In this document: one piece after another, positions 7,121 to 30,831 of the stretch
Layout: each line of letters begins with the position of its first letter
How positions within the stretch are numbered: position 1 is the first letter of the stretch
From: Ktedonobacterales bacterium
GTDB lineage: Bacteria > Chloroflexota > Ktedonobacteria > Ktedonobacterales > JADMIN01
Direction of reading: 5' to 3'
NCBI GenBank assembly: GCA_030167145.1
Contig: CP126532.1
Location: 2,850,001-2,882,000 of the forward strand
Length of the DNA stretch: 32,000 bases
Notes under the pieces: model-generated
Databases searched by the model: none
Seen by the model: only the letters and a program-made list of their open reading frames with translations
Told to the model about the DNA's origin: nothing
Translations under genes and position numbers: made by a program

Positions 7121-7212
7121 GGTGGTCGTCCTCCGGTAGGCTGGGATGGTGGGGCAGAAATCGTTCTCCGTTGAAGTGTATCAGATGGGTTGGGGCGTCG
7201 GCTGCGCTTTGC

Positions 7213-9043: not shown

Positions 9044-9106
9044 TGGTGTGTGGATAGGTCTGCTCACATGGTAGTGCGGGTTCGCGCGCATAGAGGGGGG
9101 AAGGGT

Positions 9107-9847: not shown

Positions 9848-9920
9848 GTATGCCACCGGCACGAGCGGCAACGGCTACTTGCTGCCGTTCGTGCTGATGG
9901 CTCGCCAGGGTGTAGAGCAG

Positions 9921-10286
9921 CTACAGTGGGCTGCTGACTTCAAAGAGGATGTCATTCAGCGCGGTGAAATAGAAGCCATAGCTGTCTCTGATGTTTCGCG
10001 GCTCGTGGGCAATCTGCGCGTTGGCTGCGGTGAGACGATGATATGCCTGATCCACCTGATCGCGTGTTTCGACGATGAATCCAACGTGGAAGCCTTGTGG
10101 ATATGGGCGCACGTCATTGCCAAATGCGAGGAGGTTGCTCAGAACGAGCGTGAAGCCATGTCCATCGGTCATGATGAGGATGGCTTCGCCCTTCTGCTCC
10201 AGAAGCTGGAAATCGAAGGAGTTCTGGAAGAGCGCGCGTGCTGCGCTGAGGTCGTCCACGCAGAGATTGAGGTGATTGAATCGCAT
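9921..10286 (-). CDS. VOC / glyoxalase-bleomycin resistance family protein
   Basis: MRFNHLNLCVDDL...GFHVGF is the VOC pattern. GAGGAGAA RBS upstream of the ATG at 10286. Confidence 0.8.
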   Translation of the reverse strand: MRFNHLNLCVDDLSAARALFQNSFDFQLLEQKGEAILIMTDGHGFTLVLSNLLAFGNDVRPYPQGFHVGFIVETRDQVDQAYHRLTAANAQIAHEPRNIRDSYGFYFTALNDILFEVSSPL

Positions 10287-10420
10287 AGGGTTCTCCTCAG
10301 TTGGGAGGTCCAATGCGATGGGGCGTTGCGGTGGCACATACGCATCAGACCTCGACGTATCAGCAGATGAAGTGCATCTGCTGTTGTCGTGGGTCCTCGC
10401 GCTGATGCGCCGGACAGTTG

Positions 10421-10469
10421 CCCTCAGTGCGCTGAGGGTGATCGGGCTACCTACCGATCCTGCCTTTTT
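10421..10469 (+). terminator. Orphan plus-strand double hairpin followed by a T-run
   Basis: CCCTCAG-tgcg-CTGAGGG (10421-10438), then GATCGG-gctaccta-CCGATC (10440-10459), then CTGCCTTTTT. There is no plus-strand gene upstream. Confidence 0.35.
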
Positions 10470-10555
10470 GACGCTGGCAGCATATCACATCCGCGACCCG
10501 TCTGGTGAACAGTTGTCTCTTCGATTCGTATCGCTATGAATTTTTTGTGAGGCTC

Positions 10556-10585
10556 TTGACAGATAGAACATTTGTTCAGTATACT
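10556..10585 (+). promoter_or_regulatory. Sigma70-like promoter, cassette copy A
   Basis: TTGACA (10556-10561), 18-nt spacer, TATACT (10580-10585). Confidence 0.6.
10566..10577. promoter_or_regulatory. Perfect GAAC-N4-GTTC palindrome (Cheo/LexA-box-like) inside the promoter A spacer
   Basis: GAACATTTGTTC. It is the only perfect N4-spaced GAAC/GTTC palindrome I found in the window. Confidence 0.5.
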
Positions 10586-10650
10586 CGTAGCGTCGGACGT
10601 TGAAGATGGAGTGCGAGATTCCGTAGCGCGTCTGGACAGATGTGTTTTTG

Positions 10651-10680
10651 GGCGGTGAGTCCGAGTAGGACGCCGCTCTC
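10651..10680 (+). promoter_or_regulatory. Conserved leader motif, copy A
   Basis: GGCGGTGAG-tccgagtag-GACGCCGCTCTC. Compare 21060-21089 and 27126-27154. Confidence 0.6.
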
Positions 10681-10723
10681 TCCCGTGGAAGGCCGCGGGC
10701 AGAGAGCGGCGTTTTGCTTTTTT
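10671..10723 (+). terminator. Intrinsic terminator within the leader, upstream of the protease RBS
   Basis: CGCCGCTCTCTCCCG (10671-10685) pairs with CGGG-c-AGAGAGCGGCG (10696-10711), followed by TTTTGCTTTTTT (10712-10723). Confidence 0.75.
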
Positions 10724-10759
10724 GAGGGGACTCGCAGATGCGGGAGGGAGTGAGACAAG

Positions 10760-12253
10760 ATGGCGAGGAGAAGCGCGGCAGCGGTTGCGGGGAACGTGGG
10801 AAGCGCCGAAGTGGAACTCGAAGCGCGTGTGGAGGTGGCGGCGGGGATGGCGGGTGATGGCGTGGCGCGGGTGGGCTATGCGCCCATCGTGCGGGTGGAT
10901 GCGCCGCGTCGCGAGGTGGAGTTGTGCGCGACGAGTGAGGCGGTGGATTCGTATGGGACCGTCTTTGATTACGCGGCGAGCAAAGAGGCGTTCACACGGT
11001 GGCTGGGGAATGTGCGTGAGATGCACGACCGGCGCGCGGTGGGGCGACGGGTGGCGGTGCGCTGCGACGATGAGGCGCGGCGGATCTTCGTGCGGGTGCG
11101 GATCTCGGCGGGTGCGCGCGATACGTGGGAGAAGATTGCGGATGGGACGCTGCGCGGGGCGAGCATCGGCGCGAGTGATGTGGTGTGGGAGCGGCAGACG
11201 CGGCGGATTGGCGGGCAGGAGCGCACGTTGAACGTGGCGACGCGCTATGAGTTGGTCGAGTTGAGCCTGGTGGATAACCCGAGTAATCCCGATGCGCTGG
11301 GCATTACGATTGTGCGTGCGGCGACGCCTGATCCGGCGCTGTTGGATGCGCTGGATGCGGATGGGGCGATGGCGGAAGATGCGGCTGATTATGGGTACAC
11401 GCCGTGCGCCCCTACGGTGGCCGGTGGGGAGGGCAGGGATGCTGGCGCAGTGGCAAGGGTGTCTGCCCCACCGCGCGTGGGTGATGTGGGAACGAGCGCG
11501 CAGACAGGAATGTCCGCGCTACCGCAGACAGGGATGGTTGCGCGAGCAGAGGAGGAGATGGTTGGACGGATAGAGGAGGAGCGAGCGCTGGGGCCGTTCA
11601 GCGCGAATGCGGAGGGGCAGCCGGATATGGGGGTGCCCGCGCGGGCAGAGGAGCGGCCAACGAGCGCGTTGGAGAAGGGCGCACGCCATGCGCCCCTACT
11701 GATGCCGGATGGCAATGCGCGCGAACGGTTTCATGCGGCGGCGCGGAGCATCTTGCTGGGGTGCGGGTGCCCGCTCTGCGCGGGGGCTATCGCGGCGCTG
11801 GGCGAGGACGGTGAGGATGGCGGCGAGCGGTCGCAGGAAATGCGTGACGGCGGAGCGGCGGCGGTGACGGGATTGCGCGAAGCGGCGCTGGCACGGGCGC
11901 TGGCGGCGGGGCTGGGCGCGAGTGTGGCGCAGATGGCGCAGATGGATGCGAGCGTGCGGGCGCTGGATGGCCGGGTAGCGGGGGCGCTGGATGCGCTGAC
12001 GGGGACGCTGGGCGATCTGCGGATGCGGGTCGAGCAGATCGAGGCGCAGCCGATGCCGGGGGGTCCGGTGGCGCGTCCGGTTCCGGTGGAGAAGGTTGCG
12101 GCGCTGTCGGCGGGGTATGCGGCGGCGGGTGGTGAGGTGAGCGCAGCGGAGCAGTTTCGCGCGCTGGAGTCGCTGGCGGGGCGGCTGAGTGACCCGCAGG
12201 CGCAGATTGCGGTGGCGGCGGAGTTGATCCGGCTGCGGCAGGCGGGGCGGTAG
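10760..12253 (+). CDS. HK97-family prohead protease (S78/U35-like) fused to a long C-terminal scaffold-like region
   Basis: The N-terminal ~200 aa fit the prohead protease pattern: VELCATSEAVDSYGTVFDYAA..., MHD, GASIGAS and ELSLVDNPSNPDA. The C-terminal ~300 aa are Ala/Glu/Arg-rich and helical in character. GGGAGGGAG RBS 9 nt upstream. Confidence 0.85.
   Translation: MARRSAAAVAGNVGSAEVELEARVEVAAGMAGDGVARVGYAPIVRVDAPRREVELCATSEAVDSYGTVFDYAASKEAFTRWLGNVREMHDRRAVGRRVAVRCDDEARRIFVRVRISAGARDTWEKIADGTLRGASIGASDVVWERQTRRIGGQERTLNVATRYELVELSLVDNPSNPDALGITIVRAATPDPALLDALDADGAMAEDAADYGYTPCAPTVAGGEGRDAGAVARVSAPPRVGDVGTSAQTGMSALPQTGMVARAEEEMVGRIEEERALGPFSANAEGQPDMGVPARAEERPTSALEKGARHAPLLMPDGNARERFHAAARSILLGCGCPLCAGAIAALGEDGEDGGERSQEMRDGGAAAVTGLREAALARALAAGLGASVAQMAQMDASVRALDGRVAGALDALTGTLGDLRMRVEQIEAQPMPGGPVARPVPVEKVAALSAGYAAAGGEVSAAEQFRALESLAGRLSDPQAQIAVAAELIRLRQAGR
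11671..11699. repeat. REP-like hairpin element lying in-frame inside the protease-scaffold CDS
   Basis: GGAGAAGGGCGCACGCCATGCGCCCCTAC with hairpin GGGCGCA/TGCGCCC. It is translated as EKGARHAPL. A near-identical copy (2 mismatches in 23 nt) is intergenic at 12335-12357. Confidence 0.6.
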
Positions 12254-12257
12254 GGGA

Positions 12258-12401
12258 ACCTCTCCCCCGGCCCCTCTCCTACAAGGCGAGGGGAGAAGAA
12301 CGGACGCCCCTACGAGCGCCACATGGTCGCTAGAGGGCGCACGCCATGCACACCTACGAACGCTGCGCGCTGCTCCGACGAGGAGAGGGGAGAGCAGAGG
12401 G
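12258..12401. repeat. Cluster of REP-like GC-rich elements between the protease and capsid genes
   Basis: Contains ACCTCTCCCCCGGCCCCTCTCCTACAAGGCGAGGGGAGAAGAA, GGACGCCCCTACGAG, GGGCGCACGCCATGCACACCTAC and CGACGAGGAGAGGGGAGAGCAGAGG. Confidence 0.7.
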
Positions 12402-12655
12402 TCGCGACGCGCGCGAGGGGCGCCATGTTCGGCGGATGGGCGATTCAGGCATCACCCCTACAGATGGGTTCGACGACGTTTTCAGGCATTGCCACGGCAG
12501 ATTGTTTTCGCGATGTTTCGGCAAGTTGGCAAGCGAAAGGAGCGTGCGAAGGGATATACGGCACGAGCGAGCGATTTCACGCGATGGACGCAGGTGTGGC
12601 TGACAAGCAGCTACGCATCATGCACGAGTGTGTGTTGGAAGGAAGAGCAGAGGTT

Positions 12656-14176
12656 ATGGGAACGAGTCTGTACACGCCGGGGCCAGTTGGCCCGACGATT
12701 TCGGATGAGACGGTGGCGCTGGTGCGCCAGGCGATTGCGGAGACGACACGGGCAATCACGACGACGAGCGGACTGCTCGGCTATGAATTGGAGACGCCGG
12801 CGAAGGTGATCGTGCCGGTGATCACGCCGCTGGTGAATATGCTGCCCCGGCGCAAGGGACGTGGCGTGGACGTGGTGCATTGGAAGGCGATCACGTCGTT
12901 CGATACGGCGCGGAACTGGGGCACGCTGGCCGATGGCGGCACGCCGCAGAGTGTGACGTATGCGGTGGCGCAGTTGCAGAACACGCTGCAAACCATCTCG
13001 CTGATGAACTCGGTGAGCTTTCAGGCGCAGTGGCGTGGGCGTTCGCTGGAGGCGGATGTGCGAGCGCGGCGCGTGGCGGAGTTGCTCTATCAGCTCAAGA
13101 TGACGGAGGAACGCTGGATTCTGGGGGCGAGCGCGTATCTGATGACGCCGCCCGCGCCGGTGCTGGCGACGGCGACGACCGGCGGCACGGTGGCGGCGGG
13201 GACGTACTGGGTGGCGGTGACGGCGAAGAACGCGCAGGGCGAGACGCTCGGCTCGACCTTTGCGAAGATCGTGACGACGGGCAGCACCAGCACGGTGACG
13301 ATCACGATTTTCACTGTGCCGAACGCGACGCAGTACAACGTGTACATCGGCAGCGGTGGGAGCCAGCCCGCGGCGAGCGCGATGTGGCTGCAAGCGGGCA
13401 TTTCGGGGGCGAACGCGGCGCAGCCGAACGTGGGCGCGAGTGTGACGCTGGCGGATGGCGCGACGGTGATGCCGTCGGGCGAGGTGAACCCGGCGTATCT
13501 GACGGTGACGCTGAGCGCGCCACCGGCGACGAGTGGCACGGCGCTCTCGACAGTAGCGGCGAACACGGCCAAGACATTCGTGGACGGCTCGAACAATGTG
13601 CTGATGTGGGACGGGCTGATCGCGCAGGCGCTGAACAACGCGACGACGGCGAATGGCGCGACGCTGGGGGCGCAGGTGACGCAGCCAGCAGACCCAACTG
13701 GCAAACTGGCGCTGTCGGATATTGATAATCTGCTGGCGGGCATGTATTTGCAGGCGGCAGGCGACCCGGACTACATTGTGATGAATCCGCTAGACAACGT
13801 GCGGCTGACGAATCTGGTGGTGGGCGCGGGGCAACTGCGCTATGTGGTGCAGGCGGGGGATAGCGCGGACCAGGGGCAGCTCACGGCGCAGTACCGGGTG
13901 ACGCGGTATCTGAACAAGAGCACGGGCAAAGAGATGCCGATCATCCTGGATCGCTATTGCCCTCAGGGGTGCATCGTGTTCTTGCCGGTCTCGATTCCGT
14001 TCCCGGTGCCGGAGATCAGCACGGCGGTGGAGCTGGAGACGAACCAGGAATACTGGGGCGTGGACTTCGCGATCACCGACAGCAACTTCAAGTTCGCGGA
14101 CTTCGTGGAAGAGACGCTGAAGGTGTATTTCCTGGGTGGATTGGGGGTGATTCGCGGGATCTATCCGAGCTTCTAA
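12656..14176 (+). CDS. Phage major capsid protein (probably HK97 fold) with a large internal insertion domain
   Basis: Sits directly after the prohead protease. The N-terminal pattern GYELETPAKVIVPVITPLVNMLPRRKG...VHWKAIT and EERWILGAS is capsid-like. GGAAGGAAG..AGAGG RBS before the ATG at 12656. Confidence 0.75.
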   Translation: MGTSLYTPGPVGPTISDETVALVRQAIAETTRAITTTSGLLGYELETPAKVIVPVITPLVNMLPRRKGRGVDVVHWKAITSFDTARNWGTLADGGTPQSVTYAVAQLQNTLQTISLMNSVSFQAQWRGRSLEADVRARRVAELLYQLKMTEERWILGASAYLMTPPAPVLATATTGGTVAAGTYWVAVTAKNAQGETLGSTFAKIVTTGSTSTVTITIFTVPNATQYNVYIGSGGSQPAASAMWLQAGISGANAAQPNVGASVTLADGATVMPSGEVNPAYLTVTLSAPPATSGTALSTVAANTAKTFVDGSNNVLMWDGLIAQALNNATTANGATLGAQVTQPADPTGKLALSDIDNLLAGMYLQAAGDPDYIVMNPLDNVRLTNLVVGAGQLRYVVQAGDSADQGQLTAQYRVTRYLNKSTGKEMPIILDRYCPQGCIVFLPVSIPFPVPEISTAVELETNQEYWGVDFAITDSNFKFADFVEETLKVYFLGGLGVIRGIYPSF

Positions 14177-14316
14177 CCTCTCCCCCAGCCCCTCCCCTAC
14201 GAGGAGAGGGGAGAAGGAGAAGTGCGGCTCTTACGAGGAGAGGGGAGAAAAGGAGACCTCACCCAAGGCCCGATGGGCGTCCACCGGACGCCCCTACGAG
14301 GGGAGAAGGAGTGGGG
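14177..14316. repeat. Cluster of REP-like hairpin elements immediately after the capsid stop
   Basis: Contains CCTCTCCCCCAGCCCCTCCCCTACGAGGAGAGGGGAGAAGGAG, CTTACGAGGAGAGGGGAGAAAAGG, and GGGCGTCCACCGGACGCCCCTAC (14275-14297, identical to 24136-24158). Confidence 0.75.
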
Positions 14317-20989: not shown

Positions 20990-21019
20990 TTGCGAAAAGT
21001 AGAAACTATGTTCTATAGT
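20990..21019 (+). promoter_or_regulatory. Sigma70-like promoter, cassette copy B
   Basis: TTGCGA (20990-20995), 18-nt spacer, TATAGT (21014-21019). Confidence 0.5.
21002..21013. promoter_or_regulatory. GAAC-N4-GTTC-like box (one mismatch) in the promoter B spacer
   Basis: GAAACTATGTTC abuts the -10 element. A second inverted repeat, CAGAAC-N8-GTTCTG, lies at 21020-21039. Confidence 0.4.
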
Positions 21020-21059
21020 CAGAACGCCGGGTAGTTCTGGGTGCCTATCCCGGTTTCCG

Positions 21060-21089
21060 GGCGGTGAGCCTGAGCAGGGCGCCGCTCTC
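21060..21089 (+). promoter_or_regulatory. Conserved leader motif, copy B
   Basis: GGCGGTGAG-cctgagcag-GGCGCCGCTCTC. Confidence 0.6.
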
Positions 21090-21145
21090 GATGTTCCGTC
21101 GCTGGGAGTAGACGGGGTGTCGGGGGTGGCGTCCTGTTTTTTGTT
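21076..21145 (+). terminator. Leader hairpin plus T-tract (intrinsic terminator-like), copy B
   Basis: AGGGCGCCGCTCTC (21076-21089) can pair with GGGGGTGGCGTCCT (21122-21135) as 14 bp including 4 G-U pairs, followed by GTTTTTTGTT. Confidence 0.55.
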
Positions 21146-21186
21146 GGCGAGGCATGTGGACAGGTGGATGTGAGGAGGTGGCGGAG

Positions 21187-22113
21187 ATGACGGCGGCGAT
21201 TGGGGTGAGCGCGTATGTGGATGTGCCCGCGTTTCTGCGGGCGGCGGTGAATCTGGAGACGGCGTCACTGCTGGGGTTGAATACGACGGTGGGGGTGGGC
21301 GGTGTGGCGGCGGGTGCGACGAGCCTGCCGGTGGTGGCGTCCACAGGATGGGCAGTGGGTCCGCTGTGGTTGCTGGATGGACCGTATGCGGAGATGGCGC
21401 AGGTGACGGGTTCGGTGGATGGGACGCATCTGACGCTGGCCGCGCCGGGGACACAATTCGCGCATGGGGCGGGGGTCTCGGCGAGCCAGGCGGGGACGGG
21501 CGGCGCGCTGGCGGAGGTGCTGCTGCGGGCGAGCGCGTGGATCGAGAATTATTGCCAGCAGGGAACGTCGGCTATAGATCGGTCGCTGTATGCGGTGAGC
21601 CGGAGCGAACGCTGGGGTATGCCGGACATGCGCGCGAACCTGGATCGCGATGGCGTGCTGGTGGTGCGCCCCGGTCATTTTCCGGTGCAGTCGGTGACGG
21701 CGCTGGCGATTGACCTGGGGCAGGGGCAGACGCTCAGCTTCGATGCGACACAGGTGCAGCTTGCCTCAAATGGGCGGGTGATCGAGCTGCCGTACCTGCT
21801 CTCCACCGCGCCGAATCCGGGGCAAGTGCTGGGGTGTCCGGGGGTGGGCCTGTCGCGCGTGCGTCGGCAATGGGTGACGCTGACGTATACCGGCGGGCTG
21901 ACACCAGGGGCGCTACCGTATGACGTGCGGCAGGCGTGCATTTGGGTGGCGAGCGAGCTATTGGCCGAGCGGCGCAACCCGACGGGCGCGGCGGCGGTGC
22001 GCCAGGGGAAGTTCGAGCTGCAAGCGCGGCTGCGCGGCGACGCCTCGCCGGACTCGCTGCTGCTGGCGCAGGCGAAGGCGGCGCTGGAGCCGTATCGTGT
22101 GGGGCAGATGTGA
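21187..22113 (+). CDS. Phage gp6-like head-tail connector (adaptor) domain protein with an N-terminal extension
   Basis: The central pattern LLRASAWIENYCQQG...RSL...VVRPGHFPVQSVTALAIDLGQGQTLSFDATQVQL..GRVIEL matches the gp6-like connector consensus (A..IE.Y..r.l...L...PV.SV..v..d). GAGGAGG RBS before the ATG at 21187. Confidence 0.6.
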   Translation: MTAAIGVSAYVDVPAFLRAAVNLETASLLGLNTTVGVGGVAAGATSLPVVASTGWAVGPLWLLDGPYAEMAQVTGSVDGTHLTLAAPGTQFAHGAGVSASQAGTGGALAEVLLRASAWIENYCQQGTSAIDRSLYAVSRSERWGMPDMRANLDRDGVLVVRPGHFPVQSVTALAIDLGQGQTLSFDATQVQLASNGRVIELPYLLSTAPNPGQVLGCPGVGLSRVRRQWVTLTYTGGLTPGALPYDVRQACIWVASELLAERRNPTGAAAVRQGKFELQARLRGDASPDSLLLAQAKAALEPYRVGQM

Positions 22114-22130
22114 CACGGTGGGGAAGCGGC

Positions 22131-23162
22131 TCAGGATGCGCGCTGGCGCCGACTGCGTACAACGCCTGTCGCCAGTTTGACGATGAACATGATAGTACCA
22201 AGGCAACTCAGTGCTGCTCCTGCTAGGCCGATCACGACAAGAGCAATAACGAAGGGACTGCTTTTGGAGGCCAGCCCTAGCTCCGAGATGATGACGAGGC
22301 CAAAGACAGGCAGACTTGCTATGCCATCGAACAGTATGATACGGATACCCCAGGACGGTCGGACCAGCTTGCTCTTGCGAACGGTTATCACGATCAATGA
22401 AATACCACAGGAAAGCAACACGACACCCACTGCCTCAGCAGCGTAGAAAAGCAAGCTCTGGATGCTATCACTTGGGCTGAAGAAGGTATGAAGGGAAATG
22501 ATGACAAGGAGCATGAGCGCACAGCCATGAAAAACACGTTCAAGTCTGCGTTCCCAGTTTGGCTGCGCGGTGGGTGGTGGGTTATTGCGCGGTTCCGGTT
22601 CCATACTTCGCTCCCTTGCAAAGGCGGATGCTATGCCGGTGAGCGCTGCTGCTGCCGTCGGGCAATGATGCGCTGGCCCGGTGGAGATGCGCTGGCCCGG
22701 TGGAGATGCGATGAACGCAAACGCAAGGCTCCCACAGCCGATGGCGAGAACAAGATAGGGTTCGACTGCACGCTGTAGCGCCAAAAGGCCAGGTGCAAGC
22801 TCATAGAGCGTTGGGAGTGTGCCATTGGGCAAGAGGCGTGCCAGTGAATCGTAAGCCCACGGTGGAAGAAGAAGGAATGCGACTATGAGACTCAATGGGA
22901 TGCGCCAAGAGCGCAATGTCCATGGACGCCGAATAGCGTTCCCTGCCAGTAGCAGCATATTGGCGCAGCACCATATCAGGGCGTTGAGGCTGAGCGCAAA
23001 GCCCAGGCCGGTGTGCTTCGAATCGAAAGACACAATCCAGGCAAGGGGCAGGAAGAGTACAAAGCAGCCGACCCATGCGACTAGCAAGATACGTTCCCAC
23101 CATGCGAGCGGGACAACTGGATGCTGCGCTATTTCGGTGGGCGGCTGCTCATTCGATTCCAT
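22131..23162 (-). CDS. Multi-pass integral membrane protein of unknown family
   Basis: About 8 hydrophobic helices. GAGGAG RBS before the ATG at 23162 (MESNEQPP...). AT-richer than its flanks. Opposite strand to the flanking phage-like genes. Confidence 0.6.
   Translation of the reverse strand: MESNEQPPTEIAQHPVVPLAWWERILLVAWVGCFVLFLPLAWIVSFDSKHTGLGFALSLNALIWCCANMLLLAGNAIRRPWTLRSWRIPLSLIVAFLLLPPWAYDSLARLLPNGTLPTLYELAPGLLALQRAVEPYLVLAIGCGSLAFAFIASPPGQRISTGPAHHCPTAAAALTGIASAFARERSMEPEPRNNPPPTAQPNWERRLERVFHGCALMLLVIISLHTFFSPSDSIQSLLFYAAEAVGVVLLSCGISLIVITVRKSKLVRPSWGIRIILFDGIASLPVFGLVIISELGLASKSSPFVIALVVIGLAGAALSCLGTIMFIVKLATGVVRSRRQRAS
22667..22710. repeat. Perfect 19-bp tandem duplication inside the membrane-protein CDS
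   Basis: GATGCGCTGGCCCGGTGGA occurs twice (22667-22685 and 22686-22704), followed by a partial GATGCG. Confidence 0.9.
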
Positions 23163-23246
23163 AGCTGCTCCTCGCATTTCGGCTGGCGCGTGGCGCAATC
23201 CAAGCATACACCATAGGCGGCAGATTGAGAAGGAAGGAAAACCAAG

Positions 23247-23564
23247 ATGATTTTCACGACGGTTCGGTTGGAGCGGCCAGAGGGGACGGCGCTGTTGCAT
23301 GGCATCGGCGCGCAGATCGAGCAGGCCGCGGCGGATGACCTGGCGCGCGCTGAGTTGGAAGGTGCGCGTCCGTATGATGTGTTCTGGCTCTACACAACGC
23401 AGGGTGTGCCAGCGGTTCCGCTCCAGCGGCGCGATGTGCTCTTCGACGAGCAGAACAACGACCTCGAAACTGGCCAGCCCGCCAAATATCGTGTCGCGGG
23501 GCTGGTCGAGACTTTCGATAACGATCATCAAGAGGCGCTCTGCGAGCGTGTCGTGGGAGGATAG
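23247..23564 (+). CDS. Phage head-closure / head-tail joining-like protein
   Basis: 105 aa. The size, its position after the connector, and the C-terminal pattern DVLFDE....YRVAGLVETFDNDHQEALCERV resemble gp7/SPP1 gp16-type proteins. This is pattern memory only. Confidence 0.45.
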   Translation: MIFTTVRLERPEGTALLHGIGAQIEQAAADDLARAELEGARPYDVFWLYTTQGVPAVPLQRRDVLFDEQNNDLETGQPAKYRVAGLVETFDNDHQEALCERVVGG

Positions 23565-23572
23565 GGAACATC

Positions 23573-24115
23573 ATGCCAGGCCCGGTTACGCTGCCCGGAC
23601 AGCCAGCGACCTTCGCCGCGCTCCAGGCGATGCAGTCCGTGATTCTGAGTGAATGCCTCGTCGGTGGAGTGTCGCCGTTCGCCGCGCTCTCGTCCGCCGA
23701 TATCGCGCGCTTCGGCGTCGCCAATGCGGTGTTCATCGGCCAGCCGAAAGATTTTAAGGATGCCTATCTGCCGCAGTGCAGCCTGTGGATTCCGCCGGAG
23801 AGCGAGAGCGCCGCGCTGCTGGGCTTCGCGGGGCGCGCCGTGGCGGAGTTCGAGGCGCGGGTGCGTGTCATGGTGGATCTGCGCGCGGACTGGTACGCCG
23901 CCGAGCAGCAGATACTGGCGATTCGCGATGCGCTCTGGCCGGTGCTGCTGCGGCACGAACGCCTGGGCGGGACGGTGACGAGTGTCGTCGCGGGCGAGGC
24001 GCGAGCCGGGCGTGGCCTCTGCTATGAGACGGTGGCGGGCGCGCAGTATCGCTGCTTCGAGGCGCTGTGGTGGGTGCGCCAGCAGTGGAACATCACCGGT
24101 GGGCACGTCGCCTGA
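23573..24115 (+). CDS. Phage neck / tail-terminator-like protein (DUF3168-like?)
   Basis: 180 aa, translationally coupled to the previous gene (its GGGAGGA RBS overlaps that gene's stop). The positional argument is stronger than the sequence argument. Confidence 0.35.
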   Translation: MPGPVTLPGQPATFAALQAMQSVILSECLVGGVSPFAALSSADIARFGVANAVFIGQPKDFKDAYLPQCSLWIPPESESAALLGFAGRAVAEFEARVRVMVDLRADWYAAEQQILAIRDALWPVLLRHERLGGTVTSVVAGEARAGRGLCYETVAGAQYRCFEALWWVRQQWNITGGHVA

Positions 24116-24135
24116 CAAAGGAGCGGGCGGTTGAA

Positions 24136-24158
24136 ACCGCGCGACGGGCGTCCACCGG
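24136..24158. repeat. REP-like hairpin, exact copy of 14275-14297
   Basis: GGGCGTCCACCGGACGCCCCTAC with stem GGGCGTCC/GGACGCCC, located 21 nt after the stop of the neck-module gene. Confidence 0.8.
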
Positions 24159-24405
24159 ACGCCCCTACAATGGCGTGCCGCCGCTCCACTTCGATCACAG
24201 CCCGCTCCGCTCCTACACGTCGCTCGCTGCGCCGTGTGCTGGCCCCGCCGTCGCGGGTTAGGCAGAGAGTGACAATGGAACGATTGAGGGCTGCGCTGGG
24301 ACTTTTCGCCTGCCACGGCTGAGCGTTGTGCTACGCTGGGCGCACTGCTTGCGCTTCGCTCAATGGCGAGCGAACGGTTTCTTGAAGGATGTGAGATACC
24401 GGCCC

Positions 24406-25320
24406 ATGCGAAGACTATCCGTTATCGCTCCGCATCATGCGCGACCCGCCATGTTCATTGCGCTGACGCTCGCGTTGCTGCTCTCCGCCTGTTCGCGTGC
24501 GGCGGGAGGCGCGCGGCCATCGCTGAGCATCACGCAAGGAACGGCGGCGGCATCGGCTACCACGATGGCATCGCCTACGGGGACGGCGCGGCCCACGGCC
24601 ACGACTGCGCCTGGCGGGGCGTACACGTTTCCGCAGATTCTCCCAGGCGCGGCGCTGCCGAGCGAGGCGACCTGCGCCGCACGAGTGCAGCGATCTGCAT
24701 GGGAGCCGCGTCACGATAACGCGGCGGCGAATGTGCGCGTACCCACGAGCGCGCAACTTGCCGGAATCGCGCCGTGGGACGGCGGGATGGGTCTGAATGG
24801 GAAGGCTGATGGCCTGCGGAAACACATGACGGGCGACTTTACGGGCACGACCGATGAGATTCTGCAATGGGTTGCCTGCGTATGGGGCGTGCCGGTGGAT
24901 GTGGTACGCGCGGAGGCTGTCGTCGAATCGTACTGGCATCAGAGCCAGCGCGGCGACTGGACCACCAGCCAGAACTATTGTCCGCCGGGCACGTGGAATG
25001 GTTCCGGCTGCTATCAGAGCTACGGCATTCTGCAAATCAAGTATCGCTACTTCGGCGGCACGTGGCCGATGAGCCGCGATGATACCGCCTTCAGCGCCGA
25101 ATATGTCTATGGGATGTTGCGCGCCTGCTACGAGGGTTGGACCGATTATCTGTACGACCGCACGCCGCTACCGGGCTATCCGCGCTACGGCGCGGGCGAT
25201 CTCTGGGGCTGCCTGGGCCGCTGGTATAGTGGCGGCTGGTACGATCAGGGCGCGGTGGACTACATCGCCAAGGTCAAGGCTGCCCTCGCGCAGAAGATCT
25301 GGCGTGCGTCGGGATTCTGA
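24406..25320 (+). CDS. Lipoprotein with a C-terminal lytic transglycosylase (SLT/lysozyme-like) domain
   Basis: Lipobox LLLSAC after a hydrophobic signal, followed by a Thr/Ala-rich linker. AEAVVESYWHQ (catalytic E-S) and SYGILQIKY (GLMQ-like) match SLT motifs. Confidence 0.65.
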   Translation: MRRLSVIAPHHARPAMFIALTLALLLSACSRAAGGARPSLSITQGTAAASATTMASPTGTARPTATTAPGGAYTFPQILPGAALPSEATCAARVQRSAWEPRHDNAAANVRVPTSAQLAGIAPWDGGMGLNGKADGLRKHMTGDFTGTTDEILQWVACVWGVPVDVVRAEAVVESYWHQSQRGDWTTSQNYCPPGTWNGSGCYQSYGILQIKYRYFGGTWPMSRDDTAFSAEYVYGMLRACYEGWTDYLYDRTPLPGYPRYGAGDLWGCLGRWYSGGWYDQGAVDYIAKVKAALAQKIWRASGF

Positions 25321-25505
25321 TCGCCTCCGCAGAGAGCGCTATGCGCCCGGCGTGGGAATTTGCACGGGATCGAGCCAAACGGTGGGCATCGTGGCAGGCA
25401 TCGTGGTGTGACATAGTACCGGCAACATTGGTTTAGAAATCTGAGTTAACCGCCATGATTCACGGCACGCGACGGTTGACCGCTGTGCGCTATAGATGAG
25501 ATCTG

Positions 25506-25534
25506 TTGACGCCGCTTGCTCACCGTACTACACT
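25506..25534 (+). promoter_or_regulatory. Sigma70-like promoter upstream of the propeller gene (site D)
   Basis: TTGACG (25506-25511), 17-nt spacer, TACACT (25529-25534). Confidence 0.45.
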
Positions 25535-25556
25535 GTTTTGGCGAACAGGGCGGGCG

Positions 25557-25579
25557 ATGTGAGCATGGCGCCGCTCGTC
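25557..25579 (+). promoter_or_regulatory. Partial copy of the conserved leader motif (site D)
   Basis: ATGTGAGCATGGCGCCGCTCGTC shares GTGAG and ATGGCGCCGCTC with copy C. The spacer is 3 nt rather than 9, and I found no clear partner arm. Confidence 0.3.
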
Positions 25580-25620
25580 ATTGACCAACGACAATACCTT
25601 TTTGAGGTGGAGGCAGTGTA

Positions 25621-26925
25621 GTGCGGAAGCGTCACATCCTGATTACGTGTACCCTTGTGGTCTCTCTTGCTATGGTGGCAGGCGGTGTCGGACTGGTCGC
25701 GCGTACTGTTCGCGCGCATCCGGCCATTCCCACCATCATCTGCGGCCCATTGATTCACAGCGGGCCTGGTTGTTCTCCCTGGAAGGTTGTTGCCAGCGCA
25801 AATATTGCTTCCAGCAAGAACGACATTCTGCATGGCGCGGCGGCTATCTCATCCAGCGATGTCTGGGCGGTGGGCTACTCTCAGCAGACTACCGGAAGTT
25901 TCTACCAGACGCTCACCGAGCATTGGAATGGCTCCGCGTGGAGCATCGTCGCCAGCCCCAACGGCGGCACGGCTGACAACAAATTGCAGGCTGTCGCTGC
26001 TATCTCATCCAGTGATGTCTGGGCGGTGGGCTACTCGCAATCGAGCGGCACGTATTCCGCGCTCATCGAACACTGGAATGGCGCGACGTGGAGCATTGTT
26101 CCCAGCGGCGCGACTGGTGTTCTCTACAGCGTAGCGGCGCTCGCGACGGACAATGTCTGGGCGGTGGGCATGGCGATCAATCCTGGCGGCGGCTCTTCGA
26201 CGCTGGTCGAGCATTGGGATGGATCGAGTTGGAGCGTCGTGCCCAGTCCCAATGGTTCACTAGTTGGCGGAAACCATCTCTATGGTGTCGCGGCGGTTGC
26301 GACGAACGACATCTGGGCCGTGGGTGGATACGGCGCGGCCAGTGGCGATCAAACGCTGGTCGAACATTGGGATGGCAACACCTGGAGTGTCGTGCCCAGC
26401 CCGAACGGCAGCATCCTCACCAATGAGCTTTTCAGTGTAGCGGCAGCTTCATCCGGGGATGTGTGGGCCGTAGGGTTCTTTAATGTGGCGAGTGGCAATG
26501 GCTCGCAGACGCTGATCGAACATTGGAACGGCACAAGTTGGAACAGCGTGCCCAGCGCGAACTGTGGCACGTACAACAGTCTGTCTGCGGTGGCTGTGGT
26601 TGGGCTTAACAATGTTTGGGCTGTGGGTGGGTGTTCCGGCGCGAACGGACAGACTCTCGGCCAGGCGATGGCAGAGCGCTGGAATGGCACGAATTGGAGC
26701 TACCTGCCCACGGCGAGCACAAGCGCCGCGTTTCCGGGCGCCGCGAATGTCTCGTTGAACGCCATAGCCGTCGCTTCGGCGTCTGACATCTGGGCGGTAG
26801 GGTATGCAGGCGCTGGGGACGGCATCGGGCTGTACCCGAACGCCACCCTGGTCGAGCGCGCAAACATCACCATCACCCGTGGTGGCCTGCTCCATGGGCG
26901 GCTCGCTTTCCCATTCGCTAAATAA
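25621..26925 (+). CDS. Secreted 7-bladed beta-propeller repeat protein (WAVG / EHWNG..WS.VPSPN repeats)
   Basis: Seven ~50-aa repeats of the type ..AAISSSDVWAVGY....TLIEHWNGS.WSIVPSPNG. N-terminal signal/anchor. GTG start with a GAGGTGGAGG RBS. Confidence 0.8.
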   Translation: MRKRHILITCTLVVSLAMVAGGVGLVARTVRAHPAIPTIICGPLIHSGPGCSPWKVVASANIASSKNDILHGAAAISSSDVWAVGYSQQTTGSFYQTLTEHWNGSAWSIVASPNGGTADNKLQAVAAISSSDVWAVGYSQSSGTYSALIEHWNGATWSIVPSGATGVLYSVAALATDNVWAVGMAINPGGGSSTLVEHWDGSSWSVVPSPNGSLVGGNHLYGVAAVATNDIWAVGGYGAASGDQTLVEHWDGNTWSVVPSPNGSILTNELFSVAAASSGDVWAVGFFNVASGNGSQTLIEHWNGTSWNSVPSANCGTYNSLSAVAVVGLNNVWAVGGCSGANGQTLGQAMAERWNGTNWSYLPTASTSAAFPGAANVSLNAIAVASASDIWAVGYAGAGDGIGLYPNATLVERANITITRGGLLHGRLAFPFAK

Positions 26926-27081
26926 TCTGTGCGGGTCGCTGTTAAGACGTTGTGTTGCTCTTCGCCCGTGAAATGATGCGCGGACGAAGAGCAGCGTTCG
27001 TTTCGCGATATATCTCCCGTCATCTATCGTCACATCCCATCACTTCACGTCACCAATGCATCCAGCCAGCGCCGCAACCTC

Positions 27082-27110
27082 TTGCGGGAATGGAACATCT
27101 GTTTTAGGCT
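27082..27110 (+). promoter_or_regulatory. Sigma70-like promoter, cassette copy C
   Basis: TTGCGG (27082-27087), 17-nt spacer, TAGGCT (27105-27110). The -10 is weaker. An alternative -35, TTGACG, lies at 27115-27120. Confidence 0.4.
27093..27104. promoter_or_regulatory. GAAC-N4-GTTC-like box (one mismatch) in the promoter C spacer
   Basis: GAACATCTGTTT abuts the -10 element, the same placement as in copies A and B. Confidence 0.4.
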
Positions 27111-27125
27111 TGTGTTGACGAAATC

Positions 27126-27154
27126 GCGGTGAGCCGGAATATGGCGCCGCTCTC
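27126..27154 (+). promoter_or_regulatory. Conserved leader motif, copy C
   Basis: GCGGTGAG-ccggaatat-GGCGCCGCTCTC. Confidence 0.6.
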
Positions 27155-27200
27155 TCCCAGGGCTATGCCGTGGGCGGAGGGCGGCGCTATTCGCATTTCG
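27144..27200 (+). promoter_or_regulatory. Leader hairpin, copy C, with a weak U-tract
   Basis: GCGCCGCTCTCTCCC (27144-27158) pairs with GGGCGGAGGGCGGCGC (27172-27187) over about 15 bp with 2 G-U pairs and 1 mismatch, followed by TATTCGCATTTCGG. Confidence 0.5.
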
Positions 27201-27234
27201 GTGGGTGATCGAAGAGAAAGTGAGGTGGGGATTT

Positions 27235-30200
27235 ATGGCGGGGACACTGTTGAAACTTGGCTACTCGAATCCGTTGACGGATAGCTTTGGCGCGCATCCT
27301 ATCCTGGGGCCAGTGCTGGACCTGAACGACGGCGCAACGTATACGCTGCTCGCGCCGGAAGTGGGAGGGATAGAGTTACAGCCGCCGCCGAGGACCATTG
27401 CTTTGGCGGGCAATATCCGCACGCAGGGCGAACGGGCGACACGGGCGCTGTATCGCCACAACCGCACGGTGCGCGTGCCGCTGCTGCTCGGTCCCATGTC
27501 GTCGTATGCGGCGCTCACCGCTGCCCTCCGTGAACTGCTGCAATGGGTCAACGCTGCTCCGCAAGTGCCGATGACGCTGCTGTATCAGCCACCCAACGCC
27601 ACGCAACCCGTCTATCTCGACATCGTGGGTGCGGCGCACTCGCTGCCAGCGGATGAGAGCGATTGGCTGCGGTTGCAGTTAGAGCCGGTGGAACTGGTGT
27701 TCGTCTGCCGTCCTGGGCTGCGTGGGGATCGCATCACCTTGCAGAATCTGGTGAGCAATCCTGGCTTCGAGCAGGGCAGTGGGCCAGGCGTGCCGGTCTT
27801 CACTGAACTCTTCGCCAACCTTGCGGCGTACACGCAGGTCGCAGGGAGTGCGCCCACGCTGGCTCCGGCCAATACGTTTGTGGACGCGCTCATGGCGAAT
27901 GGCGGTAGTGCGCTGCTGGCGTACTACCGGCTGGATGAAACGTCGGGAACGGCGGCGTACGACATCGCGGGGCAGGGGTACACCGGTACGACGCACGGCA
28001 GTCCGACACAGAACGTGGCGGGGTTGCTCAGCGGGGACACGGATGCGTGCTACACCTTCGCCTCGGCCAGCTCGCAATACGTGAGCGTGCCGTCAACTGC
28101 GGTGTTCCCGTCGGGCAATAGCCCGCTTAGTGTCGGCGTGTGGTTCAAGATTGCGAGCGCACCGGCGGCGACGGCGCAGTTGTGGAGCTACGGCGACATC
28201 ACGACGGGACATCATGCGCTCTCGCTGTATCTGGCGACCACGGGCAAGCTGACCTGTGATGTGGGGGCAGGGGCGTCGGTGCTTTCCTCGGCCTCAGCGG
28301 TCTCGAACGCGGTGGCGCACTTCGCGGCGCTGACCTGGGATGGGACGACACTGACGCTGTGGCTGGATGGCGTCTCGCAGGGGACGGCGACACCAGGCGC
28401 ACAATCCATCCCCACGACGCCGACGGTGAACCTGGGGGCGAATGCGACGCCGGCGGCGTACTTCAGCGGGCAACTGGATGAGGCGTGCCTCTGGTCGGCG
28501 GCGCTCTCCTCGACGCAAATTGCGAACATCTACACCGCTGGACATTCTGGCGCGAGCGGCACACTGGCCTCGGCGTTCAGCCTTCCGGTCAGCGGGCAGG
28601 TCAGTTTCGGGAGCGCGCAATGGGCCTCGGTGAATGCGTGGCAGCTACGGTTCCGCTACACCACAGGGCTGACGCTGCGGGCGTTCTTGCATTATGTGGA
28701 TGGCAACAACTACGTGCAGGCGCAGGTGACGGGGACACAACTCAGCCTCGCCCACAAGGTCGGTGGCACCTTCACCACGATCCAGACGGTGACGGTGGCG
28801 CTCACCTATGAGGGGTGGTACTGGCTGCAATGCACGCAGTTCCCTACGGTGAATGCGACGCCAACGACACAGTTCCCGAATGTCAATGCCAACTATCCGT
28901 ATCTCACGGCGGCGGTGACCTACGATGACAATGGGGCGGTGGGGGCGCAGATCGCCGCAGCCAGTGGGCCAGCGGTGGATGTCGCCATCGCGCTGACGGG
29001 TAAGCCGCAGATGCTCGCGCAAGGGGCGGCGCTGGTGGTGGGTGGGAACGTGGTCAATCTGTTCGGGCCAGGGGGATGGAGTGTGGCGACCGGCGGCGGC
29101 GCGGGCGGCCTGGGCGTCACCAGCGTGGCTATCGGTTCGTGGGAACAAGCCTCCGCTAATCTGCCACCCCTCGGCCTGGTCAACGTCAACGCGGGGAATG
29201 CGGTGCAGGTGCCAGTGACCTCGTATGGCTGTGCGCGCTTAGATATTCCCGCTGGTTCCACGGCGCTAGATGCGCGGTGGCAGACACCGACGAGCGGGTT
29301 CGGGCCAAATGGCCTTATCCCGCTTCCAGGTTCCGGCGGCGCAGGGGTCACGCTGGCCTATGCCTTCGCCGCCAACTCCACAGGATTTGCGGGCACGGCG
29401 CGGGTGCAACTCTACTGGACCGAGTACACAGCGGCGGGGGCGGCGCTGGGGACGTATCAGGCTGCAAGCGTGACGCCACCGGCGGGGTGGCAGGGGTACG
29501 CCAGTACCTTCGTGACACAGAATGCGGGGTGCGCGGCGATCTCCATCTTCATCCGCATCCTCGATGCGGCGACGGGGACGAGCGTGGGGGCGGTGCTGTG
29601 GCTCGACAATGTGCAGGTGTGGAGCGTGAGCAGCACAGGGCTGGCAGTGGGCAGCATGCCGTACTGTGAACTGCGGTTCCCGCAGTCGCCCGCGCAGGTG
29701 GTGCTGAGCGGATTGCTGGGTGATCTGCCGTGTCCGGCGGCGCTCAGCTTCGGCGCCTACCTCACATCGCTACCGCAGGGCGGCGCGCTCAGCTTCGCGG
29801 TGGGACGCTCCGCGCAACCTTCGGCGACGGCGCGACTGACGGCGGCGATGAACGGGTTCTATGGGAGCGCGCTCGGCGCGGGGCAGCAGGCGACGGCGGC
29901 GCTGGATGCGACGGCGTATGGGGGCTATACGATCTCGAACAATCCGCAGACGGGGTGGAGCGCGAAGGGGTTCGCGCCGCTGGCCAGTGACGCGCCGGGG
30001 GTGTATCATCTGCTCGAACGGTTCCTCTCGACGCAGAGCGTGGGCAACCTGCCCAATGTGCAGGTGCGGGCGAACACGCAGCAGCGGCTGCTGCCATGGT
30101 TCGGGGCATCCTCCTCAGCCGACCAGCTTGGCAACAGCTATGGGCCGTATGCGGCGCTGCTCTCCGCGAGCAACACGTGGACTATCGTAGACACGGGGCA

Positions 30201-30723
30201 GGTGACGCTGCCGCCCTATAGCCAGGGGGCGATGACGGACCCGACACAAACGTATCTCGTGCCGCATCCGCAGTGGCAAGATCTGACGGCGGGCGGGGCC
30301 ATGTGTAGCGCGAGCTGGTGCGCGCTGCTGCCGATAGATGGGTCGCTCATCGTCGGCGTGGTGAACAATCCGAGCAATGCGGCTTCGGCGCTCTCGAACA
30401 CCTGGCTGTGGACGTATTTCGATGGGCTGCTGGTGAACCGGGCGGCAGCGCAAGATGCGCCAGGGTGGCTCTACTCACTCGAAGCGGTAGCGACGCCGAA
30501 TGCGGCGCATGCGGGTGGTGGGCCAGGGACACAGGGGACGGGGAATGTGAACGTGAACAGTGGGGCCGATCCGTATCTCATCCTTGACCCGACGAGTGCG
30601 CTTCCTCAAACGGGGCAAGCAGGAGTCAATCAACTGGTGGCCTATGTGGCAGATCAGGCGGGTGCGGTGCTGGGATTCGCGGGTGAGGTGAGCTATAGTC
30701 CGTTGTACCTGTGGCCTCGGTAG
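27235..30723 (+). CDS. Large (1163 aa) LamG / concanavalin-A-like lectin domain protein; putative fibre or host-recognition component
   Basis: LamG pattern at about 27910-28539 (LLAYYRLDETSG...GDTDACYTF...SVGVWFK...HFAALTWDGTTLTLWLDG...FSGQLDEACLWSAALS). NPGFEQG and LWLDNVQVW are CBM4_9-like edges. GAGGTGGGG RBS before the ATG at 27235. Confidence 0.75.
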   Translation: MAGTLLKLGYSNPLTDSFGAHPILGPVLDLNDGATYTLLAPEVGGIELQPPPRTIALAGNIRTQGERATRALYRHNRTVRVPLLLGPMSSYAALTAALRELLQWVNAAPQVPMTLLYQPPNATQPVYLDIVGAAHSLPADESDWLRLQLEPVELVFVCRPGLRGDRITLQNLVSNPGFEQGSGPGVPVFTELFANLAAYTQVAGSAPTLAPANTFVDALMANGGSALLAYYRLDETSGTAAYDIAGQGYTGTTHGSPTQNVAGLLSGDTDACYTFASASSQYVSVPSTAVFPSGNSPLSVGVWFKIASAPAATAQLWSYGDITTGHHALSLYLATTGKLTCDVGAGASVLSSASAVSNAVAHFAALTWDGTTLTLWLDGVSQGTATPGAQSIPTTPTVNLGANATPAAYFSGQLDEACLWSAALSSTQIANIYTAGHSGASGTLASAFSLPVSGQVSFGSAQWASVNAWQLRFRYTTGLTLRAFLHYVDGNNYVQAQVTGTQLSLAHKVGGTFTTIQTVTVALTYEGWYWLQCTQFPTVNATPTTQFPNVNANYPYLTAAVTYDDNGAVGAQIAAASGPAVDVAIALTGKPQMLAQGAALVVGGNVVNLFGPGGWSVATGGGAGGLGVTSVAIGSWEQASANLPPLGLVNVNAGNAVQVPVTSYGCARLDIPAGSTALDARWQTPTSGFGPNGLIPLPGSGGAGVTLAYAFAANSTGFAGTARVQLYWTEYTAAGAALGTYQAASVTPPAGWQGYASTFVTQNAGCAAISIFIRILDAATGTSVGAVLWLDNVQVWSVSSTGLAVGSMPYCELRFPQSPAQVVLSGLLGDLPCPAALSFGAYLTSLPQGGALSFAVGRSAQPSATARLTAAMNGFYGSALGAGQQATAALDATAYGGYTISNNPQTGWSAKGFAPLASDAPGVYHLLERFLSTQSVGNLPNVQVRANTQQRLLPWFGASSSADQLGNSYGPYAALLSASNTWTIVDTGQVTLPPYSQGAMTDPTQTYLVPHPQWQDLTAGGAMCSASWCALLPIDGSLIVGVVNNPSNAASALSNTWLWTYFDGLLVNRAAAQDAPGWLYSLEAVATPNAAHAGGGPGTQGTGNVNVNSGADPYLILDPTSALPQTGQAGVNQLVAYVADQAGAVLGFAGEVSYSPLYLWPR

Positions 30724-30728
30724 TGTGA

Positions 30729-30803
30729 GGTAAGCCAAGGTAAGCCAAGGTAAGCCAAGGTAAGCCAAGGTAAGCCAAGGTAAGCCAAGGTAAGCCAAGG
30801 TAA
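30729..30803. repeat. Perfect 10-bp tandem repeat, 7.5 copies
   Basis: GGTAAGCCAA repeated 7 times plus GGTAA, starting 6 nt after the stop of the LamG gene. Confidence 0.95.
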
Positions 30804-30831
30804 ATGACTGAGGGAGAAGGGAGGACGGAAG

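Follow-up and report, generated by a model that had tools for sequence, protein, structure and literature searches.

We describe here copy C, a promoter-and-leader cassette that precedes a gene for a LamG-domain protein of phage tail type in a Ktedonobacterales bacterium (assembly GCA_030167145.1, contig CP126532.1, positions 2,850,001 to 2,882,000; this whole stretch of 32,000 nucleotides (nt) is referred to as the window). The leader holds an RNA element, read on the strand of the gene, that has two mutually exclusive folds, a small conserved hairpin and a long terminator-like hairpin, in the geometry of an antiterminator and a terminator. Together with cassettes A and B of the same window and with copies in related genomes, it makes up a hitherto undescribed family of cis-regulatory RNAs, whose mode of action would be that of known attenuators. 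Copy C truly belongs to this family, in weakened, degenerate form, its hairpin bases standing at consensus and its promoter and U-tract being degraded. We propose, giving the idea about an even chance, that copy C derives from an attenuator specific to Ktedonobacterales that gates chromosomal phage-derived structural genes behind an SOS-type promoter. The main interest lies at the level of the family and its regulon rather than in copy C itself.

Two mutually exclusive folds in the leader RNA

The elements of copy C, in window coordinates, are the following:

27082-27110, + strand: weak sigma-70-type promoter (TTGCGG at 27082-27087, spacer of 17 nt, TAGGCT at 27105-27110)
27093-27104, + strand: box GAACATCTGTTT, a LexA (Cheo-box)-like candidate with one mismatch to GAAC-N4-GTTC, abutting the -10 hexamer
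27126-27152, + strand: the 27-nt motif GCGGTGAGCCGGAATATGGCGCCGCTC
27126-27150, + strand: small hairpin, candidate antiterminator or protein-binding site (free energy -11.7 kcal/mol), with helix P1 (27126-27130 paired with 27146-27150), bulge GA (27131-27132), helix P2 (27133-27136 paired with 27142-27145) and pentaloop GAAUA (27137-27141)
27141-27190, + strand: long terminator-like hairpin of 22 pairs (-41.3 kcal/mol, z = -6.3), its 5' arm being the 3' part of the motif
27133-27202, + strand: extended long hairpin (minimum free energy -56 kcal/mol), in which an outer 8 bp (27133-27140 with 27195-27202) sequesters the U-rich tail
27191-27204, + strand: weak, interrupted U-tract (UCGCAUUUCGGUGG)
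27222-27228, + strand: ribosome-binding site GAGGTGG, with an ATG 6 nt downstream

An initial annotation of this DNA had recognised that the order of elements in copy C is that of cassettes A and B, and had placed the two hexamers and the abutting box exactly where we find them. Its start of the motif (27126) and its remark that the U-tract is weak also hold: the tail reads UCGCAUUUCGG, and the terminator scanner made 0 calls on copy C. The motif ends at 27152 instead of 27154, and the hairpin of about 15 bp drawn at 27144-27187 is in fact the larger structure of 22 pairs with its 8-bp outer extension. What had been missed is that the motif forms a conserved hairpin of its own overlapping the 5' arm of the long one, that the box is of LexA type, at least as a candidate, and that the downstream genes are phage-derived.

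Across 14 distinct instances the motif describes a 25-nt bulged hairpin. Helix P1 comprises 5 bp (positions 1-5 with 21-25, including an invariant U-G pair), a GA bulge occupies positions 6-7, and P2 comprises 4 bp (positions 8-11 with 17-20) closed by a GARNA pentaloop, which is GAGUA, GAGCA, GAAUA or GAAGA in 13 sequences and GAAUG in the remaining one (L037). In this register 96.8% of the cells are paired, compared with 34-66% in slid-register controls. Pair 9/19 of P2 is CG in seven sequences, UA in five and UG in two, and pair 11/17 is CG in five, UA in four, UG in two, GU in one and mismatched in two. Double changes occur in two P2 pairs (10 cells), and the observed covariation score was reached by 0 of 500 shuffles. 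In all 14 cases, because of G-U pairs, the fold of the sense strand is more stable than that of its reverse complement, by 3-26 kcal/mol: the invariant U5-G21 pair and the UG and GU variants of P2 pair in sense RNA only and become C-A mismatches on the other strand. These patterns uphold the suggestion of the initial annotation that the motif acts in RNA.

The long hairpin starts at motif positions 9-21 (13 instances) and has 16-33 pairs, with free energies of -29 to -59 kcal/mol against -9 to -15 kcal/mol for the small hairpin. Motif positions 16-25 belong to both folds in copy C, and positions from 9-21 onward do so in the other copies. This overlap between hairpin and terminator arm is kept in 14 of 14 instances (by inspection in L042), and since the 3' half of the small hairpin is the 5' arm of the long one, the two folds exclude each other. 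Positions 17, 19 and 25 covary also with the 3' arm of the long hairpin (in L033 a change of C25 to U is matched by a change of G to A); being paired in both folds, they argue that both folds are maintained. Motif positions 1-8 (GCGGUGAG) are the most conserved, nearly invariant, and never lie inside the long stem, so that the terminator does not explain their conservation. As in an attenuator, the 5' arm of the terminator-like stem has bases in common with an alternative hairpin, one whose conservation is backed by covariation.

A U-tract stands 3' of the long hairpin in A, B, L009, L011, L025, L033, L037, L036 and L042; in the first seven it was judged by eye and from tail counts. It is weak in L013, L018 and L021 and strong in the orthologous LamG leaders L033 and L037. 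Copy C has the GC-rich stem-loop of an intrinsic (Rho-independent) terminator, and its role may be limited to pausing, blocking or processing.

The last point connects with an account that needs no switch at all. The long hairpin could be a constitutive leader element (an RNase III site, a 5' stabiliser or an insulating terminator), the conserved bases upstream of it a recognition determinant for a nuclease or a protein binding double-stranded RNA, and copy C a processing or pause hairpin. Nearly perfect stems of 22-33 pairs, such as those seen here, are classic RNase III substrates. The extended stem of copy C, about 30 bp long, takes up the U-rich tail and leaves no U-tract free, the three weak U-tracts elsewhere point the same way, and in C and L033 the element lies about 8 nt from the predicted 5' end, like 5' stabilisers. 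Yet the covariation of the small hairpin and the invariance of positions 1-8 would be left unexplained, and in most copies a canonical U-tract stands directly 3' of the stem. We consider this account rather unlikely.

The geometry of the two folds would also fit the expression platform of a small riboswitch, in which the 25-nt hairpin and its pyrimidine tail bind a metabolite or ion, perhaps through a 3-bp loop-tail pairing (GAG-CUC), and so control the terminator. A pseudoknot of this kind is possible in most copies, being paired in 88% of the cells with one double change. It was rejected, being only 3 bp long and failing in copy C; one of its pairs is lost in three of the four sequences with A at loop position 3, copy C among them. 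Furthermore, the hairpin offers only nine helix pairs rather than a multi-helix ligand pocket, no Rfam family matches, and virion structural genes provide no metabolic logic. A riboswitch is very improbable.

Two other candidates within the leader of copy C were tried and set aside. A leader peptide could be read from GGUGAG, 7 nt and the AUG at 27141, giving an out-of-frame open reading frame (ORF) of about 50 codons across the hairpin; an AUG at that place is absent from copies A and B, and hence not conserved. An internal leader promoter was suggested by TTGACG at 27115-27120, which resembles a -35 element; the hexamer 17 nt further on, AATATG, lacks the T at position 6, and the promoter scanner was silent.

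Three cassettes in the window

The two other cassettes of the window have the same order of elements:

10556-10719, + strand: cassette A, upstream of the head protease and capsid genes (promoter TTGACA-18-TATACT with the perfect box GAACATTTGTTC; small hairpin 10652-10676; 26-pair terminator 10663-10719, then U-tract)
20990-21139, + strand: cassette B, upstream of the head-tail adaptor operon (promoter TTGCGA-18-TATAGT with box GAAACTATGTTC; small hairpin 21061-21085; 32-pair terminator 21072-21139, then U-tract)

The repeat finder placed the motif copies at 10652 (A) and 21061 (B) and that of copy C in one family, D12. The motif pattern has three matches in the window, all on the + strand, with 0.00 expected from shuffles even when 3 mismatches are allowed. 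From the -10 element to the motif there are 15 nt in C, as the initial annotation gave it, 66 nt in A and 41 nt in B (not the 65 and 40 first given). Over 15 instances the distance ranges from 13 to about 110 nt, which argues that the motif is independent of the promoter and bears out the earlier proposal that the two are separable.

Leaders of the A type, which precede protease genes, carry an extra conserved stretch 5' of the motif, consisting of GGAGTGCG, 7-8 nt, and then GTAGCG or GTAGTG. It is found in the window at 10608-10615 and 10623-10628 and in the leaders of L011/L031 and L002, and it is absent from cassettes B and C.

A family found before phage-derived genes

A scan of the representative genomes of GTDB returned 17 motif hits, of which we took as real those with promoter, motif and terminator in an intergenic leader. 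Four satisfied this definition, three from metagenome-assembled genomes (MAGs) of Ktedonobacterales (L002, L009, L013) and one from a Chloroflexota MAG (L011); the remaining hits are coincidences in the coding sequence of GC-rich genomes. A metagenome scan added L018, L021, L025, L029 and L030. A covariance model built from 11 instances recovered diverged copies in L037, L036 and L042 at 37-40 bits, and no further copy in about 260 kb of related loci. The motif recurs in at least 11 loci besides the window. Overall there are 15 true instances, from Ktedonobacterales/Chloroflexota, all in sense orientation and all upstream of the same three phage-derived gene families: the head protease plus capsid, the head-tail adaptor and the LamG tail-type protein. 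The cassette also marks a regulon, tagging phage-derived structural modules that are physically separated among housekeeping genes.

Two scans of IMG/VR phage contigs gave 0 true motif copies; six relaxed-pattern hits were rejected, lacking flanks and terminator and reaching 21-26 bits over the hairpin core only. The motif was likewise not found in the real phages that carry LamG homologues (L038, L039). Rfam 15 gave 0 hits over the whole window at gathering thresholds, and with E up to 10 cassettes C and A matched only generic long hairpins below threshold (microRNA precursors). A resemblance to the PyrR binding loop (UCCAGAGAGG) was dropped, there being no PyrR match in the Rfam scans at E up to 10.

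This distribution bears on the notion that the motif acts in DNA or not at all, either as a second operator for a DNA-binding regulator or as a repeat of the repetitive extragenic palindromic (REP) or miniature inverted-repeat transposable element (MITE) kind that came to lie in leaders by chance. Part of the motif reads as a palindrome (GCGG...CCGC), REP-like hairpin repeats abound in the genome (families D7, D9, D10, D19), and an identical leader occurs in different cassettes of L021, L029 and L030. Against these points stand the base pairs that form in sense RNA only, the constant orientation, always between a box promoter and a phage-derived gene, and the fact that no motif copies, such as a dispersed repeat would leave, occur elsewhere in the 32-kb window or in about 230 kb of related loci. 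We attach only a slight probability to a DNA-level or functionless motif.

The initial annotation had looked to orthologous loci for retention of the motif, an expectation that held in part. Both box and motif precede LamG in L033, L037, L029 and L030 (four loci with three distinct leaders). In L036 a box promoter stands before LamG, where the motif has decayed to a remnant (GGCGGGTGGTAGGCGCCG and a small terminator); the intact motif of this locus is at the head of the operon. Five loci, L040, L041, L035, L034 and L042, are without the motif upstream of LamG; in L042 the gene lies inside a contiguous cluster without a cassette of its own, and an intact copy heads the cluster. The closest LamG orthologues, in L040 and L041, show 51% identity. 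The best counterpart of copy C is L033, with promoter TTGACA-17-TATAGT, a perfect GAACTAGTGTTC box, the motif 13 nt after the -10 element and a strong U-tract. The value of copy C is comparative, as it displays the decay of a cassette (weak promoter, lost U-tract) in which the hairpin bases stay at consensus.

Two details of the related leaders are recorded here. L021, L029 and L030, which come from one lineage, have the same leader, letter for letter, from about +7 to the end of the terminator, and their promoters and flanks differ; the combination points to gene conversion, or to the leader having recently been copied from one cassette to another. In L029 and L030 a conserved small ORF of about 90 codons lies between the cassette and LamG.

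The promoter box

In 18 of 18 compiled promoters of phage-derived modules the box ends at the -10 element or 2 nt before it, with the consensus GAAC-N3-TGTTC. At the specified bases of GAAC-N4-GTTC, copy A matches in 8 of 8 positions and copies B and C in 7 of 8. This pattern (at most one mismatch) is not enriched across the window, with 8 found against 8.3 expected; the box is non-random in position, lying inside each of the three promoters of the window. It is also more widespread than the leader motif. GAAC-N4-GTTC is the LexA motif of Gram-positive bacteria (PMC3323433). On the strength of the match the box is a candidate LexA-type operator and the promoter probably an SOS promoter. The same LexA motif has reportedly been found in Dehalococcoides, a member of the Chloroflexi. 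We know of no SOS regulon described as having each SOS promoter coupled to a dedicated leader attenuator.

In L034 (10101-17151) the LamG operon is followed by Amidase_2 (endolysin-like) and then by a mutagenesis cluster of imuB-like, DUF6504 and dnaE2 genes. No GAAC box was found in the upstream region of this imuB-dnaE2 cluster.

A proposed factor-dependent attenuator

The mechanism that we propose runs as follows. A LexA-like repressor would sit on the GAAC-N4-GTTC box overlapping the promoter, and DNA damage would lift the repression. The first ~35 nt of the transcript could then fold into the 25-nt bulged hairpin with its pentaloop of GNRNA type, the fold that covariation supports. The default would be displacement by the long hairpin, which is incompatible with the small one and about 30 kcal/mol more stable; the long hairpin would terminate transcription in A, B, L033 and L037, and in copy C would at least block, pause or mark the RNA. 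Because the small hairpin is so much weaker, it would have to be stabilised for read-through by a trans-acting factor, most likely an RNA-binding protein that clamps it in the manner of LicT on its ribonucleic antiterminator (RAT) or of N on boxB. The result would be an AND gate, requiring both the SOS signal and the factor, on the making of a potentially lethal phage-like particle. If this model holds, the geometry of the undescribed cis-regulatory RNA family lends itself to clear tests, and RNA pull-down could reveal its protein partner.

Several observations weigh against the proposal. Promoter C matches consensus at only 3+3 of 12 hexamer positions, and the consensus promoter scanner, which calls A (11/12) and B (9/12), makes no call for it; we accept it as a putative promoter by positional homology alone, to that of the LamG orthologue in L033, and its position also matches the LamG-orthologue promoters of L036, L040, L041 and L035. 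The tail of copy C does not have at least 5 U among the 8 nt right after the stem. The small hairpin of copy C, taken alone, is unexceptional (z = -2.2, with 9 of 200 shuffles folding equally well). P1 is invariant over the 14 sequences and, never varying, gives no covariation evidence; only two pairs covary, and they do so in related sequences. Box promoters without the motif precede LamG in L040, L041 and L035 and head the LamG-containing operon in L034, which argues that the attenuator is dispensable for LamG. The identity of the repressor is read from the box match, and tblastn with RecA and LexA queries gave no match in any compared locus. Lastly, an all-against-all BLAST of the ORFs of 18 loci showed only structural gene families to be conserved and no regulator.

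The length of the stems bears on how a factor might act. Terminator stems are typically 7-9 bp long, and 15 bp are already enough for resistance to processive antitermination (PMC10325885). Resistance set by stem length favours a local structural switch over modification of the polymerase in the style of lambda N or LoaP, and the very long leader terminators described here bear in turn on that recent work.

The alternative, that the small hairpin or the non-template DNA is a recruitment site for processive antitermination (nut/boxB-N, LoaP-hairpin or RfaH-ops), supposes a factor that modifies RNA polymerase to pass the leader terminator and those downstream, the overlap with the terminator arm being incidental. 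The genes are phage-derived, the CGCUCU right 3' of the hairpin resembles boxA (CGCUCUUA), and GGCGGTGAG in copies A and B resembles ops (GGCGGTAG). Furthermore, the pentaloops of the family may fit the GNRA-like class that phage N peptides recognise in boxB (PMC12550061), and LoaP needs a similar small leader hairpin together with an intrinsic terminator (PMC12691694). However, stems of at least 15 bp resist at least one processive antitermination system and those found here have 16-33 pairs, and the overlap between hairpin and terminator arm is never lost. The likeness to ops was set aside, the ops-like G residues not being conserved and only CGGTGAG being so. No boxA stands 5' of the hairpin: the CGCUCU stretch is 3' of it and overlaps it, with only CGCUC conserved, so that the order of hairpin and then 'boxA' is the reverse of that in lambda nut. 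In the neighbourhoods, in which no dedicated N-type search was made, no N-like or Q-like gene and no gene for a NusG paralogue came to light. We regard recruitment as unlikely, a little more so than an element without any switch.

Phage-derived genes behind the cassettes

Two further features frame copy C:

27235-30723, + strand: gene for the 1162-aa LamG-domain protein, phage tail-type structural (Laminin_G_3, 5.6e-19; virion structural PHROGs)
26953-26996, + strand: terminator-like hairpin 3' of the stop codon of the upstream 434-aa gene, followed by GCGUUCGUUUCG

The hairpin at 26953-26996 (12+5 pairs inside a fold of -35.8 kcal/mol) separates the adaptor operon of cassette B from cassette C and would end transcription there. 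Distant homologues of the LamG protein (36-38% identity) stand directly after tape-measure-sized genes in complete phage tail modules (L038, L039). Cassette A is followed by genes for a head maturation protease (phrog_9427, 2e-29) and for a capsid-like protein (phrog_13692, 1e-55), cassette B by one for a head-tail adaptor (phrog_442, 7e-11) and by further small genes on the + strand, including two that other loci conserve as well. The modules occupy 10556-14176, 20990-26925 and 27082-30723 of the window (protease, capsid, adaptor, 105-aa and 180-aa proteins, LamG) and are separated by cellular genes (NHL-repeat, ABM, Rieske oxygenase, esterase, DUF4267, YGGT).

The arrangement varies among genomes. 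In L031 the protease-capsid pair (4046-7413) lies alone amid cellular genes of a 605-kb contig, LamG is alone on a 1.57-Mb contig in L033, and in L042 the modules form one contiguous cluster (2600-13373) with a single cassette at its head. DUF4267 and DinB_2 recur as neighbours across loci. Partial synteny of the modules is kept across genomes at only 43-51% protein identity, and no terminase, portal or tape-measure gene was seen in these loci. The gene set looks old, chromosomally inherited and phage-derived, and not like an intact prophage; it may represent a domesticated particle of the gene transfer agent (GTA) or tailocin kind. A shared cassette together with partial synteny at such identities is the pattern expected of a domesticated phage particle, of which none is described for Ktedonobacteria or Chloroflexota in the literature searched.

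More tentatively, we envisage a wider scheme, possible though on balance doubtful: Ktedonobacterales would carry a vertically inherited, domesticated phage-particle set under a private control of two layers, one a LexA-type operator and the other a lineage-specific pair of hairpin and antiterminator protein that overrides very long terminators. The set would consist of the head protease, capsid, adaptor, small tail proteins, the tail protein LamG and one more protein, about 495 aa long; its genes lie side by side in some genomes (L042) and are dispersed between housekeeping genes elsewhere (the window, L031, L033). If true, the control would represent a new system of antitermination, and the gene set would be the first domesticated element of this kind in Chloroflexota.

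Some other features of the window complete the description. The 434-aa protein encoded upstream of cassette C matches phrog_27227; a W-x-V motif recurs in its six repeats (25826-26712), each about 150 nt or about 50 aa long, an architecture like that of a beta-propeller. About eight 10-nt units (AGGTAAGCCA), repeated perfectly in tandem, form an array that begins 5 nt after the LamG stop codon (30728-30813) and is followed by a short stretch of low coding content. A direct repeat of 51 nt (92% identity) at 1-51 and 7232-7282, 7.2 kb apart, is probably paralogous coding sequence. The REP-like, GC-rich hairpin repeats, among them CCCCTCTCCTAC..GAGGGG and GTAGGGGCGCATGGCGTGCGCCC, belong to several families in the window (6111-6152, 12257-12298, 14175-14216; 11392-11415, 11676-11699, 12334-12357; 14268-14302, 24139-24173); one of these repeats separates the protease gene from the capsid gene, and the LamG leader of L041 carries another as an insertion (1131-1160).

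Comparison with known systems

LexA (Cheo-box) control of prophage, bacteriocin and gene-transfer-agent genes resembles the present arrangement in that a palindromic box overlaps the spacer between -35 and -10 and the genes are phage-related. It differs in that half-sites here are often degenerate (GATC, GACC, GAAA), and LexA binding here is a prediction.

The lambda nut site (boxA plus boxB, bound by N) shares with the family a phage setting, a small hairpin, a GARNA pentaloop compatible with a GNRA-like fold in which one base is extruded, an adjacent CGCUCU stretch and leader terminators to be overcome. In contrast to the plain 5-bp stem of boxB, the hairpin has 5+4 bp with a GA bulge and overlaps the terminator, and the boxA-like stretch lies 3' of it, inside the terminator arm. 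The dfn and mln leaders controlled by the NusG paralogue LoaP also carry a small conserved 5'-leader hairpin, which is essential for read-through of a terminator in the same leader (PMC12691694). That hairpin is of the UNCG type and does not overlap the terminator. LoaP genes adjoin their target operons, whereas none was seen here, and LoaP is known from Bacillota, Actinomycetota and Spirochaetota, not from Chloroflexota.

TerR of pLS20 has a stem far beyond the usual 7-9 bp, the property that confers resistance to antitermination (PMC10325885), and in this it is like the long hairpins of the family. It ends an operon, whereas the hairpins studied here belong to 5' leaders and overlap an alternative hairpin that is conserved; copy C, moreover, is without a U-tract.

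Attenuators of the BglG/SacY/LicT-RAT class (and also those of ANTAR and HutP) act on catabolic operons rather than phage structural genes. Terminator stems here are 2-4 times longer, the small hairpin has no sequence similarity to RAT or ANTAR targets, and no CAT-PRD or ANTAR protein was identified. The architecture is nonetheless alike: in both, a short bulged hairpin overlaps the 5' arm of the terminator and is far weaker than it, so that, in the known systems and by our proposal also in this family, termination is the default and a bound protein is needed.

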